Shown here: positions 19,452 to 35,632 of the stretch, in pieces | Position numbering within the stretch: position 1 is the stretch's first letter | Layout: the number at the start of each line of letters is the position of its first letter | Assembly (NCBI GenBank): GCA_023701205.1 | Contig: JAMPXJ010000007.1 | Coordinates: 261 to 64,260 of the forward strand | Direction: 5' to 3' | Length of the DNA stretch: 64,000 nt | Origin: Oligoflexia bacterium | GTDB taxonomy: Bacteria > Bdellovibrionota > UBA1018 | Notes under the pieces: generated by a model | Seen by the model: only the letters and a program-made list of their open reading frames with translations | What the model was told of the DNA's origin: nothing | The model's database searches: none | Program-made: the position numbers and the translations under genes

Positions 19452-19612
19452 AAGATGAGAGGCGATTCGATCATTAAACCGCAGGTGTCAAAGTTCTCTA
19501 CACCTCTCCAAAATTGGTTTTGATGTAATCTGCCGGAACATTTAGCTTAATTTTTTCAAATGGCTGGTGCGCCTCGTGCAAATCCATTCCTCAGGAAATG
19601 AGGAAAGGAATC

Positions 19613-20560
19613 ATGAGTCGTTTTAATATTCCAATCGTGACCACCGTCCTTGGAGCTATTTGGGCCGTGAATGCCACTGCAGTAACCCTTCCTGACACTG
19701 CGGCTCCTGGATCATCGGCCTGCGAAAACGCTCGGCACGCCGGGTTGCTGTTAATCAAGACTACGGATGAGGCGGTTCGATCGGAGATCGAGTCCCTTCG
19801 TGCAAAACTGAACTCTCCAGAGCTCGACGCGGTTCGCTCGGTCCTGCCGAAGATGAGAGAAGCAGTCATAGAGTTTAAAAAAGCGGAGATCGCGACAGAT
19901 TTTACTCATTACGGGTTGAACATTAAACAGGCTGCCAAAGCCGCCGAGATCTTCTGGAAGTCACCTTGGAACACCTCTCAGTATAGCCATTATGAAACCG
20001 AGGTCGGGCGGCGTGTAATTAGCGAGCTTTTCCACGATGATTTGACTTCCGAGGACATGAAGCGGATCAAAGAAAAGTTTGATTGGGGCACCTGGCGCGA
20101 TGCCAAATCAATCCAGAGCGACCGCTGGGAAAAGGTGATTGCCATCGATCGTGAGCTCCGTTCAAAATATCACCTGCTTAAAGAGTCGGAAAAATGGCGG
20201 CAACAATACAGACGGCTCCAGGATAAAGGTTTTTCGCTCTCCCTGAATGTCGCGGACTATTTACCGGGGCCTCACCCCATTTATCAGGATGTCGTGATCG
20301 GGCTTGAGTCCGAGGATGGTCCTTCGTCAACTCACCACTATTCCATTTCAAATCCTTCCGAGGTCGTACCTCCGAATTCGAGCCCAGAAGAGCGTGCAAT
20401 GGAGGCGATATCGGCTGAGTGTCGTCAAGCCTTGAGCCAAGGCCTTCCTCAAGTTACCGCAGTGTCCAATGCCACGGCGAAGGCGCAGATGCCACGTGCG
20501 GTGGCAAATGGCGAATTCGGGGTCTCGAAGAGCGAATCCACTGCTACTGCGGGAAAGTAA
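19613..20560 (+). CDS. hypothetical secreted protein in a locally low-G+C segment
   Basis: An AGGAAAGG RBS precedes ATG(MSRFNIP...), and the N-terminus is a signal peptide. No recognisable domain. The sequence from about 19450 to 20560 is visibly AT-richer than the flanks. Confidence 0.45.
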   Translation: MSRFNIPIVTTVLGAIWAVNATAVTLPDTAAPGSSACENARHAGLLLIKTTDEAVRSEIESLRAKLNSPELDAVRSVLPKMREAVIEFKKAEIATDFTHYGLNIKQAAKAAEIFWKSPWNTSQYSHYETEVGRRVISELFHDDLTSEDMKRIKEKFDWGTWRDAKSIQSDRWEKVIAIDRELRSKYHLLKESEKWRQQYRRLQDKGFSLSLNVADYLPGPHPIYQDVVIGLESEDGPSSTHHYSISNPSEVVPPNSSPEERAMEAISAECRQALSQGLPQVTAVSNATAKAQMPRAVANGEFGVSKSESTATAGK

Positions 20561-27276: not shown

Positions 27277-28985
27277 CGCTGTTGCGCGCCCAAATCCTCG
27301 GAGCCGACTTCGGCTTCTTCCGCCGGACCTCCGAACTGATTGCGTCGCATCGCCTCCTCGTAAACAGAGCGCGGGCTTCGCTCCGCGAGCCAACGGGTCA
27401 TGCCGAGGACCGCCTGAACCAGGTCGGGGTCACGAAAAACGAGAATCTGCTCGTTGTTCGTCTGCGCCGCCTGACTGAAGTTGAATGATGTACCTAAGAT
27501 CACGTAGGGTCCGGTCGCCAGCACCTTGTGGTGAATTTTGGCCGTGATGGCGTGGCTGGTGCCGTCGATCTTCACGTGATGGTTATTGTATTCCGGCGGG
27601 GCGATCCGGATCTGCGGCCGGAGCGCATCGAGCTGGGCGGGGGAGAGCTCCTGATGCCAGGCGTTCTGGGCATCTTCCTCGTACGTCTTCTTCTTCTTTG
27701 AAAGTTTCACCTGCTTCATCCCGGACATGAGGAGGAACTGGCTCCACGGCTGCATGGCGAAGGGCGTGTCGCCCACCGAGAGGAAGTCGAAGCTCTTCTG
27801 GCGCGAATGTTCCCGCAGGGCGCGCTCGCGCAGAGCGGTGGCCACCTCTTCCGAGGAGTAGGCGAATTGCAGCAGCCGGACGGGTCCTTGCGAGCTCTTG
27901 ATGAAGTGCGCGATGAGGTTCTGGTTGATGTTGCGGTAACCACCTCCGGGCGCGAAGGTGATGATGAGCGAGTGCTCGGGATAGGCTTCGAGCGTCTCGG
28001 GTGGAACGCCAGGCCCCGTCACCTGGAAGGACCCGGTCGTCGGATAGCTCGCGCCGCGGAACAGGAAGGCGGGATCCAGGGTCTTCGTCAGCTCATGCTG
28101 GACGAGATTGGCCAGGAGCCAGGAGCGCATTGTCAGGACGTGGTTGGCGTTCGGGACGGATTCGGGGGGCCGCTTTTGCGGCGGCAGCGCCTTGAGATCC
28201 CCTTCGGGGCCGAGGCAGGATTGGGTGAGGTTTCCGGAGGAAAACAGCACGCGGGCCTTCTCGGGGTCTTCCCAGTCGATCGCGGCGAGCTTCTGATGGT
28301 TGAGGCTCACGCTGTTGACCGGAGTCACCGCCACCCCGCCGGACACCAGGCGGTCTCGCACGCGCGCGACCTCGGGACGCAGCGCGACCACGTTCTTGTC
28401 GATGCCGACGCGCACCGAGACGCCGGCGGCCGCTTTCCTGACGAGATCTTCAGCGACCTCTTCAAGATCGAAGTCGAAGACGTTGAGGATGATCTGGCGC
28501 TCGGCCTGCTCGAGGAAATCGCGCCAGACCTGCACGAGATCGGACTCACGGACCAGGGATTTACCGAGGTAATAAGGGTGCGAAGCGTGGAATTTGAGCT
28601 CCGAGTACCCCGGCTGGCCCCGGGGCGGAATGAGCCGAAGGTGCTTGGTCGGATCCGGGTTTTGCGCGGATTCGGCCGCCACGGCCTTGAGGAGTTCTTC
28701 GCGGGGGGAGTCGATTCGCGCGGGTTCGTTTTGCAGAAGCTCGATAAGTCGGGACTCGACATTGGCCTTGCTGAGACGCTTCTGCACCTTCGGATCGTCC
28801 GAGCGCAGCACCTCGCGGCTTCTCCTGAAGATTCTCGGATAGTCGGGTCCCTGGAGCTCGGCGGAGCGGTCCAGCGAACCGGGTTGCCGTTGCGCCCCCT
28901 TGTGCGAAGGGCTGGAGCAGCCCGCCGTCGCGAGCGCCAGGTTCAGAAACGCGATCAAGATCCAGCGCGGAGTGCTTGAGCTCAT
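27273..28985 (-). CDS. phospholipase D-superfamily lipoprotein (two HKD-type motifs)
   Basis: Lipobox LATAGC|SS. Motif 1 is NHQKLAAID...SSGN (HxKxxxxD...GSxN). Motif 2 is IHHKVLATG...GTSFNFS. Confidence 0.7.
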   Translation of the reverse strand: MSSSTPRWILIAFLNLALATAGCSSPSHKGAQRQPGSLDRSAELQGPDYPRIFRRSREVLRSDDPKVQKRLSKANVESRLIELLQNEPARIDSPREELLKAVAAESAQNPDPTKHLRLIPPRGQPGYSELKFHASHPYYLGKSLVRESDLVQVWRDFLEQAERQIILNVFDFDLEEVAEDLVRKAAAGVSVRVGIDKNVVALRPEVARVRDRLVSGGVAVTPVNSVSLNHQKLAAIDWEDPEKARVLFSSGNLTQSCLGPEGDLKALPPQKRPPESVPNANHVLTMRSWLLANLVQHELTKTLDPAFLFRGASYPTTGSFQVTGPGVPPETLEAYPEHSLIITFAPGGGYRNINQNLIAHFIKSSQGPVRLLQFAYSSEEVATALRERALREHSRQKSFDFLSVGDTPFAMQPWSQFLLMSGMKQVKLSKKKKTYEEDAQNAWHQELSPAQLDALRPQIRIAPPEYNNHHVKIDGTSHAITAKIHHKVLATGPYVILGTSFNFSQAAQTNNEQILVFRDPDLVQAVLGMTRWLAERSPRSVYEEAMRRNQFGGPAEEAEVGSEDLGAQQR

Positions 28986-29038
28986 GGAGGTCCCCCGGGC
29001 TCTTTTCGGAATTCCGGCGGGAAACTGGAATTTGTCTA

Positions 29039-31570
29039 ATGGTTTTGGCGGGTTTTCCCGAAACGAGAACAGTGAGAGGCCTGATTCCCGAGTTCAGGAT
29101 ATTTTCCGGCTTGGTTCCGATTCTCTTTTCGCTGCCGGCACACGCCTGGCCGCCGACTTTCGGGCCGGAGTTCACGTTCACGAATCCCGAGATCCTCGAG
29201 GTCGGTAACCGCAATCCCACGAACGCGAAATCGGAGATCAACTCCGCGAAGCTCGAGCAGTGGCGCGGGGTCCTGGTCGAGCGCTGCAAGCAGCTCGGCT
29301 GCGAGGTTCGAAGGACGAGTGACAAGCACGGCGCAGCGCACCGAGTTTCATTTCCGGATGGCTGGTATTTCAACATCTCCCTCGACGCCGCCGTGCTCGA
29401 GGTTCAGACGAAGCCCGGAACGCTCGAGGATTTCCGCGCGCGGAAGGAACTCATTCAGAAGGAGATCTTCGAGACAGCGCGCTCCATCGGCATCGAGCCG
29501 CACAAGCGCGCCGGCCAAGGTCATATCCACATCGATGTGGATGAGGCTTTCGGCCAGGACAGCCGGCTGCTGCGCAATTTCTTCGTCGACTACTCGAACC
29601 ATCCGGAGCTGGCCTGGGGCGCGCTCGGCAACCATCTCGGCAACAGCCCGCCCGTCGCCGCGCTCAAGCCGGAGCAGCGCAAAGCGCTGATCCATGCGCT
29701 TCAGGAGTTTGACGCCCACCCGGGCACGCATCGGGAGTTCGGCGATCTGATCGACCGAAACGTCTATACGCACGGAACGGTCGCGGAATGGGGCTTCCCG
29801 CGGCATTATCAGGCCCTGCGCTTCGCCTGGAATCTCAACACGATCGAGATGCGCGGGTTCCGTCCCCAGCGTTCCGCGGATGAGTTCGTGAAGGAGCTCG
29901 AGCTGATCCAGGGTCGGATCGAGCATCTCAAGAAGGTTGAAGGAGCGATTCCGTTCGTCAATCCTCCCACGCACGAGCTTCCGCTCAAGGAAGTCGTCAC
30001 GCGCTTCTACGGCTATGTGACCGAGTCGGGGCTCGACTGGGAGACGTATAAGACCCTGCTGCCGCCGGAACTCGTCGGGATCCAGCCGGACACGAAGCGG
30101 TTTCCGAAACCCAAGCTGCGCAACGAGGCTTTTGACGAGGTTCGCGATGCGAGCGGGGGCCTTCGCGAACGCTATCGCGGCGTCCATGAGGTTTACGCCG
30201 GAATGTCTGTGATAGAGCGGCGGGCCTTCGAGGCGGCCACGTTCAAGGAGTCCGCCGGGAACCGGAGCCTCCTTCCCTTGCCACGCCTCCTGAGCGTGGA
30301 GGAGCGCGACGAGATCAAGAAGGGCGTGCAGCAGCGCGCTCGGGCGCTTCAGCTTCTCGCCGAGGATGTCGCGAAGGGGAATTACGAACGCATTGAGGCA
30401 TTCGGGCTTCCGCGGTCCATCGTGAAGGCAGCGCTGGCGCGGAGCGGGGAGACCGAAGCGGTGAAGGCGCTCATGCCCGAAGCGATCGCATTTCCTTACG
30501 GGCCGGACCTGATCCGTGGCCCGGACGGAAGATACCTCGTGATCGAGGACAATACGGGCTTCGTCGGTGGCATCGGCGACTCGTCCTACTCGCGGGAGCA
30601 GCTCCTGCGTCATCAGCCGGCGTACCGGCAGTTTCTCGAGCAGGATCGCGGCAAATCGGCGGTCGAGATCCTTGTGGAACATCTCCGGAAGCTGGCCGTG
30701 CCGCCGGACGGAGAGCTGGTCATGGCAGTGCACCCCGATATGAAGGTGAACAATGCGACCCTGTCTTCACAGCTGGAGAAGCTGGGTGTCCGGGTGATCT
30801 ATGGTGCCAAGAGTGAGCTGAAAGTCGATGCCGGGGGCGTGTTCCTGAACATTGATGGTGTTAAGCGCCGCGTGGGCCTGGTTCTCCCGAAAAACTATGC
30901 CATCGGTGGTTTTGCAACCCAAACCGTTCCCGGTCTGGAAGAAGCTGCAAGAGCGGGCAAAGTGGCGCTCGGATATCAGGCGGGCCTGGAGTTCCTCGGA
31001 GACAAGGAGATCTCTCCTTATGTGGAGAAGCTGATCCGCGGCTATCTTGGGGAAGCGCCGATCCTGGGCACTCCCGAAACCCATTCGCTCAAGCTGGGGC
31101 AGGGAGCCGATCCGGCGCTCGTCGAGGCGCTCACCGAGAATCGCGAGGCATACGTGCTCAAGCAAGCCGATGGAAGGGGCGGGAGCGAAGTCTGGATCGG
31201 CAAAAAAACCTCCAGCTCCGAGTGGCGCTCGTTGCTCAAGAAGGCGGTGAAGGAGCCGGACAGCTTCATCGTCCAGAAGTTCACGCCCCTCTCGGAACTC
31301 GAGGGGCATATCGTGGACATGCGGCCGGTGACCTACGTGAGCCGGTTCGGCGCCGACGTCGCGGATCATTTCTGGGCGCGCGCGCTCCCGGTGGATGGCA
31401 ACGGCAAGGTGAACGTCTCCATCGATGGCAAGGTCACGGCGGTCTTCGTGACGGACCCGAAGAAATACCCGGCGCAGCCGGAGCTGGACGTGCCTGCGGC
31501 CGCGCGCCCGGGAGGGTTCCCGGGCTCCTCTTTTTGCGCGCGGCTTTTTGAAAAGCTGTTCCGTCGTTGA
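29039..31570 (+). CDS. two-domain ligase: N-terminal glutamine-synthetase/GCS2-like amidoligase domain fused to a C-terminal circularly permuted ATP-grasp domain
   Basis: The N-terminal half contains WYFNISLDAAVLEVQTKP, AGQGHIHIDV and NTIEMRGFRP. These parallel the GS/GCS2 motifs of YbdK (LGIELEMQ, GQHVHVG, TVEVRVMD). The C-terminal half contains LVIEDNTGFVGGIGDSSYS and YVLKQADGRGGSEVWIG...IVQKF, an ATP-grasp nucleotide-binding segment placed C-terminally as in CP-ATP-grasp proteins. The ORF track starts at 28976 and would overlap the PLD gene start, so M22 (29039) is more plausible. Confidence 0.55.
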   Translation: MVLAGFPETRTVRGLIPEFRIFSGLVPILFSLPAHAWPPTFGPEFTFTNPEILEVGNRNPTNAKSEINSAKLEQWRGVLVERCKQLGCEVRRTSDKHGAAHRVSFPDGWYFNISLDAAVLEVQTKPGTLEDFRARKELIQKEIFETARSIGIEPHKRAGQGHIHIDVDEAFGQDSRLLRNFFVDYSNHPELAWGALGNHLGNSPPVAALKPEQRKALIHALQEFDAHPGTHREFGDLIDRNVYTHGTVAEWGFPRHYQALRFAWNLNTIEMRGFRPQRSADEFVKELELIQGRIEHLKKVEGAIPFVNPPTHELPLKEVVTRFYGYVTESGLDWETYKTLLPPELVGIQPDTKRFPKPKLRNEAFDEVRDASGGLRERYRGVHEVYAGMSVIERRAFEAATFKESAGNRSLLPLPRLLSVEERDEIKKGVQQRARALQLLAEDVAKGNYERIEAFGLPRSIVKAALARSGETEAVKALMPEAIAFPYGPDLIRGPDGRYLVIEDNTGFVGGIGDSSYSREQLLRHQPAYRQFLEQDRGKSAVEILVEHLRKLAVPPDGELVMAVHPDMKVNNATLSSQLEKLGVRVIYGAKSELKVDAGGVFLNIDGVKRRVGLVLPKNYAIGGFATQTVPGLEEAARAGKVALGYQAGLEFLGDKEISPYVEKLIRGYLGEAPILGTPETHSLKLGQGADPALVEALTENREAYVLKQADGRGGSEVWIGKKTSSSEWRSLLKKAVKEPDSFIVQKFTPLSELEGHIVDMRPVTYVSRFGADVADHFWARALPVDGNGKVNVSIDGKVTAVFVTDPKKYPAQPELDVPAAARPGGFPGSSFCARLFEKLFRR

Positions 31571-31862: not shown

Positions 31863-33056
31863 TTAATGCTTATTCCAATCGTTTTCGGGCATGACCCGTT
31901 TCATGAATTCATCGAAGAGGGGCACGGTGAAGGCCGTATCGCCATGATTCGGGCTCCAAATCATCCCCTTACCGATCAGGCTGCTCCGAGTCGGACCTAA
32001 TGAGCTGACGATCCGGTTAAGCTTCTCCGCAATATCTCCCGAACGGTGAGGTCCCGCCCCGAGTGCGGCCATCGCGCGGAGGTATTTCTTCTCTGAAGGG
32101 GTAAGTCGGTCAAAACGAACGCGAAAAAAGCTCTCGTCAAGAGCTGCGACAGCCTGGGTGGAAGCCGCGTGGACGTCAGCAACGGTGATCGGGCTTCTGG
32201 TCGCAACACTCCAGGAATGCTTTCCCCACTCCTGCAAGAAATAAGGATAGCCGCGAGTCTGCTCTACGATGGCCGCCACTGCTGCAGGCTCAAATTCCAC
32301 ACCTAGGTCAGACGCCGGCTTTTCAAGCGCCAGACGCGCGGCGGCGATGGGGAGAGGGCCTATTTCCGGATAGTCAAAGAGTCGTTCGGCATAGGACTTA
32401 GCATTACCAGCGCGGCCGCGAAGTTGTGGCAGCCCGGCTCCGACAATGCAAACCGGTAGTTTTTGCTGAGCACATCGATGAAGTGCAGTAATGAGAGCAG
32501 CAAGCTCCGGCTCCGCTACATACTGAAGTTCATCGATGAATATCACGAGAGCTGTCCCGGCCGCTTTCGCGGCGCGACCGACCTCCTCAAGGAGCATAGC
32601 TAGATCGAGTTCAAGGTCGCCGTTATCGGCAAATCCTGGTTCAGGATCGTAGTCGAGTCCAACTTCGATATCTTGGAATTTTACCTTGAGAGCCCTGACA
32701 AAACCGGCGAGACCGCGAAGCGCTCTTACCGCGACATCCTTGGCCTTATCGATCCTGCTAAGCCGCAAGAGCGCCAACCGCAACTGCGGCGCCAATATAG
32801 CGGGAAGCGAGCGACCCTCGGGAGCCTCAATTCGAACCGTATGTATTCCCGCGGCCTCTGCATCATTCCGCATCTGATCGAGTAAAACCGTCTTACCTAC
32901 ACCTCGTAGTCCAACCATGACGACGCTTTTCGCCGGATTGCCCAAGCGAATACGTTCGAGCGCGATCCGAACCGAACCGCGCAGCTGATCGCGACCAGCC
33001 AGTTCAGGAGGAGGGGTGCCCGCGCCAGGTGAATAGGGGTTTTGTATTGGATCCAT
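31863..33056 (-). CDS. archaeal-type AAA ATPase (Arch_ATPase/DUF234-like P-loop NTPase)
   Basis: Walker A GLRGVGKTVLLDQ and Walker B ALVIFIDELQYV, with a C-terminal winged-helix-like tail. The gene sits in a lower-G+C stretch. Confidence 0.6.
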   Translation of the reverse strand: MDPIQNPYSPGAGTPPPELAGRDQLRGSVRIALERIRLGNPAKSVVMVGLRGVGKTVLLDQMRNDAEAAGIHTVRIEAPEGRSLPAILAPQLRLALLRLSRIDKAKDVAVRALRGLAGFVRALKVKFQDIEVGLDYDPEPGFADNGDLELDLAMLLEEVGRAAKAAGTALVIFIDELQYVAEPELAALITALHRCAQQKLPVCIVGAGLPQLRGRAGNAKSYAERLFDYPEIGPLPIAAARLALEKPASDLGVEFEPAAVAAIVEQTRGYPYFLQEWGKHSWSVATRSPITVADVHAASTQAVAALDESFFRVRFDRLTPSEKKYLRAMAALGAGPHRSGDIAEKLNRIVSSLGPTRSSLIGKGMIWSPNHGDTAFTVPLFDEFMKRVMPENDWNKH

Positions 33057-33253
33057 TTGATGAACTATATAGCGATATTAGGCAGATTACAACATATAGA
33101 TAAGTTTTGTAATTTAACTATAAATGAACATTTAAATAGGCAAGACATGGAAACTACTAAAGTAAATCAACAGCAGCACTTTGAGTGCTCGCAGTGTGAG
33201 CCACAGTAGCGGGCGGCCTTACTCTCTCCTGGAAAAAGCCCGATAAGCAATCG
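33057..33253. promoter_or_regulatory. AT-rich divergent intergenic region (probable promoters for the AAA ATPase and the secreted 792-aa protein)
   Basis: About 200 nt of strikingly AT-rich sequence, ttgtaatttaactataaatgaacatttaaatagg, between two divergent starts. Confidence 0.35.
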
Positions 33254-35632
33254 ATGAGATCAAGCATGCGGGCCCTCCTACTCGCAGGGATGTTGACGTT
33301 TCCCGGCGTGCACCGCGCGCAAGCCGGGCTGCCGGTCCCTCCAGCCCCGGGCATTCCCGTCCTCAACCGGTGCAAAACAAGCTTCGAGGAGCTTCTCAAG
33401 GCGCCCGTATTTCAAAGATTCGGCCTGGGAGAGAATTTTTCCGCTGCTCAGGACAAAATCCTGATCGCCCGGGGAGAGGTACTTGCGCTCACGGAGAGAA
33501 GACTGGAACGCAATCCTACGCATTCCAGGCTCCAAATCCATGAGCATCGCGTGAGTCCATTGGTCCTGCTGGATGCCAAAACAGAGGCGCGGATCTCTGA
33601 CTGGCATTCGATCCTGGAAAAGGTGGACCAAAAGCTGGGCGAGCTCGGCGACAGCCTCGTGGATAAGAAGGCGAACTTTCCTAACTTCGGGCTCTCATCG
33701 GACTCGAAAACAGTCGCTCTGCAGGTCCTCACCGGGTCGGGCCCTCGCGTGGTCCTTTTTGATTATGGAAAAGGCGAAGTCCGACAGGTCTTCAGGCCGC
33801 TTCTGAATCGGCAGACGCCCGCAGTCCGCTTACAGCATGATCGTTATATCCTGCTGACTGACCGAGCCGAAGGTGGAAGCGTCAATCTGATCCTGGATAC
33901 CCAGACCGGAAGCCAAAAAATCCTGGAGGGCTCGCGATACGCGGACATTTCAGTTTCACCCGATGGAGAAAGACTCCTCGCGCTGATTGGAGATACGCTC
34001 TGGTATGGCAGATTGGACCAGCTCGGAAGCAGGGAAGTCATCGAAGATGCCGCTTCGCTTAAGTCCCTGAAAGGGAAGCTCGTCTCTCAATCGCCTGACC
34101 TGAGCCAACTCGTGGTGAATCATGGAGAGCAGACCTGGGACCCGGCAACCCAGACCTCGTTCCACCTGCCTGTCCTGAAGGTGGCCACTTGGAAGGGGAA
34201 CTCCTATCGGGAACAATTCCTTCCCGGTCTCGAAAATTTGTCCCTGAAATTCAAGGAGGCCAAAAACGCGGGCATGGAGCTCCTGCGGGCGGACGTTCAG
34301 GGAAAGCAGACACCGGATGGCCATTACCTGGCGGTGCGCTTCCCGATGCGAGCCAAAACAGAAACCCTCCCTAAGAGGGGTTTTCGCCAAGAGGTCGTGG
34401 CAGAGTATGACATTGTGGGCCTTTGGGACCTCCGAAAGCCGGGAAGCCCACCTGCTTTCACGGCCTCCCGGGATCTCAACTCACCAGGAAACTACGAGCC
34501 CACTCTGGACTCCGCCATTGCCTCGGCTCAGGCGGGCGAGACAGTGCTGCGAAAGGTCGCTTTTGAGCTTTCAGACGATGGCAAGCTCACTCTGGTTCGC
34601 GTCACTTCTGCTGATTCAAATCCAGCGTCCCCGCAGCGAGCTTTTCCGAAGCTGGATTTTGCGGTCTCAGAAATTCGCCTCGTCGGTAACGGGCAGGTCG
34701 AGCGGTCGCTCGATGCGCAAAGCTTTCCGCTCAAAACACTCGGTGAGGGGGATAATCCGGGAGCGCCTCTGCTTTGGGGATCTATCGACGTCAGTGCCGA
34801 CGGCAAGCGTGTGGTTGCTCATACTCGCAACGAAGGGATTCTTTACTTCGAGCGGGAGCGAGGCGGCCTTTCCACGGCGGGCCCTGATCCGATCCATCCG
34901 GCTTCCGGTGTAACAGAAAAAACCGGGAAAGGTCAGTTCGCGGAGATCCTGAAGAAGGTTCCCGCCTCTTTCAAGCAAACACACCTGACTCATGAGGATC
35001 GCGAAAAGATCCAGGCGATATTTTCGATGGGTAATCTCTCTCGCAGCGATCAGCTTCGCAATGCGTTCGAAGCCTACCGTGAGGCGAGATTGCGGGGCCT
35101 TGGGCGCAAGGAACGGGAGCAGGTGCTCAAGATGCTCAAGGAGCTCCGGGTCAAGAAAAGTCCCTCTGGCTCGGGCTACATGAGGGCCAATGCTTCGGGA
35201 ATCGTCATGCCCGAGGAGCTTCATGGCACCGCCGCGCACTACGGTGTGCTGTCCCATGAGCTGGAGCACCTGATTCAGATCGTGGAAGCAACCCCTTCGG
35301 CCAGTCCGGCTGAATTACGGCGGCTCTACGGGCACCTCACGCAGGAGCACGCGCAGGTCAATCTCTGGGAGATCGGCGCCTCGAAAGGCGAATGGGAGTT
35401 CCTGAGCGTGGTCCCCGCGTCGATCAGGAGCGAGGCGGAACAGTCCGCGCAGCAAAACCTCGGTGATCATGGGCTTCGCCTGGCCGTCACCGAGATTCTC
35501 CAGTCAGCGGGTGGCTCCCTGCAGGATCATATCGCCCGGAAGATCAATCTCGGGATCCTGCGGATGCCCTTGGACCGGGATCTTACTTCTTTAGAGTCGA
35601 GTGTTCCGTCGGGGCGGGTGATTTCGCAATAA
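33254..35632 (+). CDS. large secreted protein with PD40/TolB-like beta-propeller repeats and a C-terminal HExxH motif
   Basis: Signal peptide MRSSMRALLLAGMLTFPGVHRAQA. PD40-like repeats: ISVSPDGERLLAL and DVSADGKRVVAHT. The C-terminal segment YGVLSHELEHLIQIVE follows. Confidence 0.5.
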   Translation: MRSSMRALLLAGMLTFPGVHRAQAGLPVPPAPGIPVLNRCKTSFEELLKAPVFQRFGLGENFSAAQDKILIARGEVLALTERRLERNPTHSRLQIHEHRVSPLVLLDAKTEARISDWHSILEKVDQKLGELGDSLVDKKANFPNFGLSSDSKTVALQVLTGSGPRVVLFDYGKGEVRQVFRPLLNRQTPAVRLQHDRYILLTDRAEGGSVNLILDTQTGSQKILEGSRYADISVSPDGERLLALIGDTLWYGRLDQLGSREVIEDAASLKSLKGKLVSQSPDLSQLVVNHGEQTWDPATQTSFHLPVLKVATWKGNSYREQFLPGLENLSLKFKEAKNAGMELLRADVQGKQTPDGHYLAVRFPMRAKTETLPKRGFRQEVVAEYDIVGLWDLRKPGSPPAFTASRDLNSPGNYEPTLDSAIASAQAGETVLRKVAFELSDDGKLTLVRVTSADSNPASPQRAFPKLDFAVSEIRLVGNGQVERSLDAQSFPLKTLGEGDNPGAPLLWGSIDVSADGKRVVAHTRNEGILYFERERGGLSTAGPDPIHPASGVTEKTGKGQFAEILKKVPASFKQTHLTHEDREKIQAIFSMGNLSRSDQLRNAFEAYREARLRGLGRKEREQVLKMLKELRVKKSPSGSGYMRANASGIVMPEELHGTAAHYGVLSHELEHLIQIVEATPSASPAELRRLYGHLTQEHAQVNLWEIGASKGEWEFLSVVPASIRSEAEQSAQQNLGDHGLRLAVTEILQSAGGSLQDHIARKINLGILRMPLDRDLTSLESSVPSGRVISQ

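Follow-up and report, generated by a model that had tools for sequence, protein, structure and literature searches.

The 64,000-nucleotide stretch of DNA that was analysed (hereafter the window) contained a complete open reading frame of 792 codons plus stop at 33254..35632 on the + strand, running from ATG to stop exactly as given in the initial annotation, and the same gene was called by NCBI. The NCBI call started at Met5 (nucleotide 33266) and described a 788-aa hypothetical protein from an Oligoflexia MAG, with no Pfam annotation on the entry and a single member in its 90%-identity cluster. The G+C contents at the three codon positions were 0.65, 0.43, and 0.66, and the frame was taken as a real coding gene because these values are typical of coding sequence. 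An analysis of third-position G+C (GC3) revealed that this target gene is a compositional outlier within the window, with a value of 0.66, whereas nearly all other genes lay at about 0.77-0.94 (median about 0.82). The divergent neighbour at 31863..33056 on the - strand had a GC3 of 0.55, lower than that of any other gene in the window, and formed with the target a two-gene, low-G+C island of about 3.8 kb. This neighbour encoded a 396-aa AAA_16/STAND-like ATPase (Pfam AAA_16, 3e-17), in which a weak match to PADLOC mad8 (2.5e-05) and a weak Orc1/Cdc6 N-terminal match were also seen; no functional link between the ATPase gene and the target was found. The two genes were separated by an AT-rich intergenic region of 197 bp (33057..33253; 39% G+C overall, 25% in the first 114 bp). 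A simple sigma-70 scan of this spacer showed no promoter-like site on the + strand and one site on the - strand, no more than shuffled sequence yields. The earlier description of a low-G+C island behind an AT-rich promoter region was correct for the island and the AT-rich spacer, as judged from GC3 and G+C, but the scan did not bear out a + strand sigma-70 promoter. The contigs L001, L002, and L003, which come from three independent assemblies and carry the target or its homologue P0002, all ended with no more than about 100-300 bp of sequence ahead of the gene, and the AT-rich or atypical upstream region may break the assemblies at these points. A second compositional outlier (GC3 0.56) was located at 19598-20560(+); its 320-aa product began with a hydrophobic leader, matched nothing in Pfam, and may likewise be an exported orphan.

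The neighbours of the target are housekeeping genes. The convergent genes near it encoded a DHOD-like protein and a 1,194-aa pyruvate:ferredoxin oxidoreductase (PFOR), and the other flanking genes encoded a circularly permuted ATP-grasp protein, a PLD-like protein, RlmE/FtsJ, a CoA-transferase, a PilZ protein, MreB, an S13 DD-carboxypeptidase, and two beta-eliminating lyases. The 864-aa protein at 28976-31570(+) matched CP_ATPgrasp_2 (1.9e-34) in its C-terminal half, while its N-terminal region of about 430 aa was without a match and no NCBIfam match was found; its reading frame overlapped the end of the PLD-like gene on the opposite strand. No secretion-system, immunity, chaperone, or toxin-associated genes were found near the target in the window. 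The loci of five homologues (P0002, P0059, P0004, P0024, and P0039) had no neighbours in common with the window or with one another, and neither a tandem paralogue nor a second copy of either module described below was present at any locus or in the window. A split-gene arrangement, with a propeller-only gene beside a zincin-only gene, was considered and rejected, as the neighbours of P0024 and P0039 were unrelated proteins. About 5 kb from P0002 lay the gene of an unrelated propeller protein of 383 aa (L002 7646-8797(-) and L003 7566-8717(-)), which matched Tricorn_N and, weakly, PD40.

The N-terminus of the target contained a basic n-region (MRSSMR), a hydrophobic core of 10 residues (ALLLAGMLTF), within the 7-15 residues of a Sec h-region, and a C-terminal region with an AxA site (PGVHRAQA|G). 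These features, judged by eye and hydropathy, are those of a Sec (SPase I type) signal peptide covering residues 1-24 (33254..33325, + strand), with the predicted cleavage at AQA|G. Neither a lipobox nor further hydrophobic segments were found by sequence and hydropathy over the whole protein, in agreement with the clean Sec signal peptide that had been proposed. Hydrophobic leaders also opened the homologues of both modules. The target is thus predicted from its leader to be exported by Sec, with the periplasm or the outside of the cell as the probable final location. The signal peptide was followed by a Pro-rich segment of low confidence (residues 25-70; 33326..33463, + strand; pLDDT 25-31), which contained the sole cysteine, C40. 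In alignment A2, a cysteine was located 1-3 columns from C40 in four of five homologues, and the C40 column itself was not invariant.

To describe the relatives of the target, an exhaustive phmmer (HMMER) search was run against 1.84 billion cluster representatives of 50%-identity clusters at E<=0.001. The search returned 66 homologous cluster representatives, which fell into distinct architectures. P0002 (785 aa, 27% identity) was collinear with the target over residues 78-766. Four proteins of 545-572 aa (P0004, P0024, P0039, and P0054) matched only the N-terminal 460-530 or so residues and ended there, and all of the remaining homologues matched only residues from about 565 to 770. The C-terminal module could be aligned to 62 of the 66 representatives. 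The architectures suggest that the target is a fusion of two orphan modules, an N-terminal propeller and a C-terminal zincin-like module, and the fusion is rare, being found in 2 of the 62 zincin-module clusters. Most of the proteins matching only the C-terminal module were 230-350 aa in length with their own hydrophobic leader; a cysteine was found a few residues past the leader, often together with a C-terminal hydrophobic segment and a Cys pair, which suggests that the standalone forms may be membrane-anchored or disulfide-stapled. Among the standalone homologues within P0003-P0040 and at loci L007-L010 and L014, the cysteine after the leader was shared and many also had the C-terminal tail, and both fusions (the target and P0002) were without this tail. 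Two further proteins, P0042 (598 aa) and P0066 (504 aa), were extended at the N-terminus by other sequences of about 270-330 aa that matched nothing in Pfam; therefore, three or more different partner domains, all unrecognised, occur with the zincin module.

All sampled cluster members bearing a name were called "hypothetical protein". A narrow, back-translated motif pattern located four loci in GTDB species-representative genomes and two metagenome loci, with G+C contents of 35-60%, every one of which held the standalone form only. The four GTDB loci all came from Bdellovibrionota MAGs (Bdellovibrionales, Bdellovibrionota, Oligoflexia, and Bacteriovoracaceae), and all of the organism-labelled genome matches belonged to Bdellovibrionota. 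A word-indexed protein search returned the target alone, or three family members when the alignment was used as the query, and a search of genome contigs with the single C-terminal sequence returned no relatives. The zincin-module family is undescribed in the libraries searched and so far has been found only in Bdellovibrionota.

The C-terminal module spans residues 566-770 or so (about 205 residues; 34949..35563, + strand) and contained the single HExxH of the target, HELEH at residues 668-672 (35255..35269, + strand), in which H668 and H672 are predicted zinc ligands and E669 the predicted catalytic base. A single HExxH would turn up by chance in about 4% of proteins with the size and composition of the target, so the motif alone proves little; it is significant because it was invariant in all 62 homologous clusters. 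The single C-terminal HELEH that had been pointed out from the letters was confirmed in this way. The pairwise identity within the 62-sequence alignment of the module was only 20-29%, and H668, E669, H672, and E706 were invariant in 62 of 62 sequences, with R612 (58/62), E671 (58/62), Q675 (53/62), A709 (57/62), E713 (60/62), and P721 (57/62) nearly so. The signature of the module was roughly AHExEHxIQ, then 21-46 residues, then ExGAMxAEWEF. The second part corresponded in the target to E706-I-G-A709-S-K-G-E713 (35369..35392, + strand), comprising the predicted third zinc ligand E706, the alanine of a predicted Ser/Gly-turn at +3, and a second conserved glutamate, E713.

An AlphaFold2 model of the C-terminal module was built from a 34-sequence alignment; a combined full-length alignment (A3) misaligned the N-terminal homologues and was left out of the modelling. 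The mean pLDDT of the model was 89.3 and the pTM was 0.88. From the N-terminus, the model consisted of three helices, a three-strand sheet, the HExxH helix, a short helix, the helix with E706 and E713, and four further helices. In the numbering of the fragment, a helix at 59-71 was followed by strands at 73-77, 85-87, and 90-94, by the helix at 101-120 with HExxH at 109-113, and by the helix at 141-159 with E147 (=E706) and E154 (=E713). Gluzincins contain a backing helix, a beta-sheet, an active-site helix, and a glutamate helix in that order, and the glutamate ligand is followed three positions later by a small "Ser/Gly-turn" residue, which is mostly Ala (PMC6414381). The module of the target showed each of these elements: a conserved HExxH, its location in a helix after a backing helix and a sheet of at least three strands in the prediction, and a downstream glutamate with a small residue at +3 (E706 and A709, both in a predicted helix). 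The motif in which the initial annotation had seen a possible zincin is therefore located in a predicted zincin-type helix, with E706 as the candidate third ligand on a later helix. From the topology of the model, H668, H672, and E706 would converge on one metal point.

The N-terminal module spans residues 71-535 or so (33464..34858, + strand) and is connected to the zincin-like module by a linker of residues 536-565 or so (34859..34948, + strand), which is not conserved and was modelled with low pLDDT where the N-terminal model ends. That model was built from only six sequences and reached a pTM of 0.69 and a mean pLDDT of 68; the core (residues 110-450 or so) had values of about 80-92, and residues 1-70 and 542-569 were unstructured. 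The model contained only beta structure, arranged as about eight sets of four antiparallel strands. A beta-propeller is recognised by repeated four-stranded antiparallel blades in a closed ring and by structural likeness to other propellers, and on these grounds the N-terminal module was assigned a predicted propeller fold, as the first reading of this protein had proposed. PD40-like motifs were located at residues 231-243 or so (ISVSPDGERLLAL) and 512-524 or so (DVSADGKRVVAHT), and with four more blade starts of the S/TxDG type, six were visible in all. The Pfam PD40 model (PF07676) gave no match to the target even at E<=10, and its gathering score of 20.9 bits was not reached. Among the homologues, P0039 matched PD40 at 23.8 bits, above the gathering score, in the segment aligned to SPDGERLL / ISVSPDGERLLAL of the target, and P0024 matched at 18.3 bits in the segment aligned to SADGKRVV (VSADGKRVVAH). 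Of the PD40/TolB-like repeats that had been reported, the motifs and the propeller fold were upheld by the model and by the homologues' PD40 matches at aligned positions, but a PD40 match of the target itself was not obtained. "PD40-like propeller" is a fair description of this module, and formal PD40 membership was not reached.

Searches against known families agreed with the initial statement that no characterised family could be recognised. Pfam, NCBIfam, and PADLOC gave no match to the whole target at E<=10 or E<=1 and nothing significant with the two halves; single-sequence and profile searches of PDB sequences gave nothing relevant; and a Foldseek search of the C-terminal domain against the PDB gave nothing significant. 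The C-terminal 254 aa matched in Pfam only DUF6782 ("putative metallopeptidase"), faintly, at E=0.13. When the 34 aligned members were scanned against Pfam, all matches were below threshold, with Zn_peptidase_2 in four, DUF6782 in three, and DUF2268 in two, and all Pfam families matched by more than one member were zincins. An NCBIfam scan of the members of the C-terminal module gave nothing, and a literature search on Bdellovibrio, HExxH, and secretion brought up nothing relevant to the zincin-module family.

Taken together, the conserved residues and the predicted folds favour a reading of the target as a zinc metallopeptidase that is exported and belongs to a new gluzincin-like family, and its N-terminal propeller would select or tether the substrate; we put the probability of the catalytic assignment at roughly two in three. 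In the proposed reaction, H668 and H672 of the active-site helix and E706 of the next, "glutamate" helix would bind one Zn2+, and E669 would act as the general base that activates the zinc-bound water for attack on the peptide bond, with the substrate placed alongside the edge strand of the small sheet of three strands. We infer these steps because His-His-Glu on zinc with the motif glutamate as the base is established zincin chemistry. Propellers recruit or filter substrates in prolyl oligopeptidase, DPP-IV, and tricorn, and by analogy the propeller of about eight blades, on its flexible linker of about 30 residues, would most likely do the same; alternatively, it may serve to anchor the enzyme on a surface ligand. 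Plausible substrates in Bdellovibrionota would be proteins of the prey or components of the envelope, although this is speculation.

The initial annotation had gone further and proposed a secreted effector or toxin, a reading that gives the zincin the role of a toxic protease and the propeller a role in targeting or translocation; such a protein, dedicated to prey or competitor cells, appears improbable. Polymorphic toxins and effectors are marked by linked immunity, chaperone, or secretion genes or by a delivery domain, and the target had none of these. The neighbours were housekeeping genes, no secretion-system, chaperone, immunity, PAAR/VgrG/Rhs gene lay near the target or at the homologous loci, and no conserved partners were found at those loci. 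PADLOC had no match for the target, and the leader was an ordinary Sec signal. Most family members were small standalone proteins with a C-terminal hydrophobic and Cys tail, more like envelope-anchored enzymes, and the likeness to toxin zincins was no better than that to housekeeping zincins. The architecture of a propeller with a possible zincin was retained, by the AlphaFold2 prediction and the invariant HExxH...E, but the label of a secreted effector or toxin was not supported.

Two other readings concern the chemistry. The protein might be a zinc-dependent hydrolase or another HExxH enzyme acting on a non-protein substrate, for example as a peptidoglycan stem-peptide or lipid-linked amidase in envelope remodelling, or its reaction might be non-hydrolytic; we consider this unlikely. 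A non-catalytic binding or scaffold protein, in which the propeller would serve as a periplasmic adaptor like TolB and the motif in a helical HExxH domain would be purely structural or metal-sensing, would agree with the resemblance of the PD40-like blades to TolB-type periplasmic propellers and with the lack of a significant match to any peptidase family. However, pseudo-enzymes usually lose their catalytic residues, whereas the catalytic glutamate and the three predicted ligands were invariant across 62 clusters with only about 20-30% identity overall. The zincin module occurred mostly without the propeller, and there was no TolB/Pal/Tol context. The scaffold is strongly disfavoured because all of the catalytic residues are invariant, and we regard it as very improbable.

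If the preferred reading as an exported zinc metallopeptidase is true, the zincin module would define a family of small exported zinc peptidases that is new and restricted to one lineage, Bdellovibrionota. This family comprises about 60 clusters at 50% identity, and it is covered by neither a Pfam nor an NCBIfam model and has no relative among solved structures. A second orphan module was also identified, the propeller of about eight blades, which can be fused to a predicted peptidase. Such enzymes might degrade prey or remodel the envelope in predatory bacteria, and they would be a possible source of new protease specificities. More tentatively, the C-terminal module could be a new gluzincin-like family at the level of MEROPS families (HExEHxxQ ... 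ExGAxxxEW), confined to Bdellovibrionota as part of an exported or envelope-anchored arsenal for prey digestion, and the propeller fusion could be its substrate-selecting variant, with an arrangement of folds unseen in any solved peptidase; we hold this wider proposal to be possible but doubtful. Zincin chemistry and propeller-plus-peptidase fusions are already well known, and no new principle is involved. The libraries searched contain no description of the family, of its signature (HExEHxxQ...ExGA), of its restriction to Bdellovibrionota, or of the propeller-zincin fusion. The family would be useful for annotation and for the biology of predatory bacteria, and a specialist would be unlikely to be surprised by it.

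Among known systems, the predicted catalytic module is closest to the gluzincins of MEROPS clan MA(E), which include thermolysin/LasB (M4), aminopeptidase N (M1), lugdulysin (M30), and the M32 carboxypeptidases. The only recurrent Pfam matches of the module were to the small predicted zincins Zn_peptidase_2 (PF04298, YugP-like), DUF6782 (PF20573), and DUF2268 (PF10026), which carry an AHExxHxxQ-like motif. All of these matches fell well short of the gathering scores (best E 0.00096; E 0.11-0.13 for the target itself), covered little beyond the HExxH region, and do not amount to membership. The propeller shares with the TolB/PD40 propellers (PF07676) the S-x-D-G-K/E-x-hydrophobic blade starts, and the target is predicted to be exported, like TolB. 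The TolB propeller has six blades, whereas that of the target is predicted to have about eight and is without the TolB N-terminal domain and without a tol-pal neighbourhood. As a combination of a propeller with a predicted peptidase, the target resembles the propeller-gated peptidases prolyl oligopeptidase, oligopeptidase B, and DPP-IV (S9), tricorn, and the trilobed protease. The catalytic domains of the S9 and tricorn peptidases are serine alpha/beta-hydrolases or of the tricorn type, whereas that of the target is a predicted zincin, and their propellers are inserted in or packed on the catalytic domain, whereas the propeller of the target is N-terminal and connected through a flexible linker. 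Gating by the propeller of the target would be an analogy with the S9 and tricorn peptidases.
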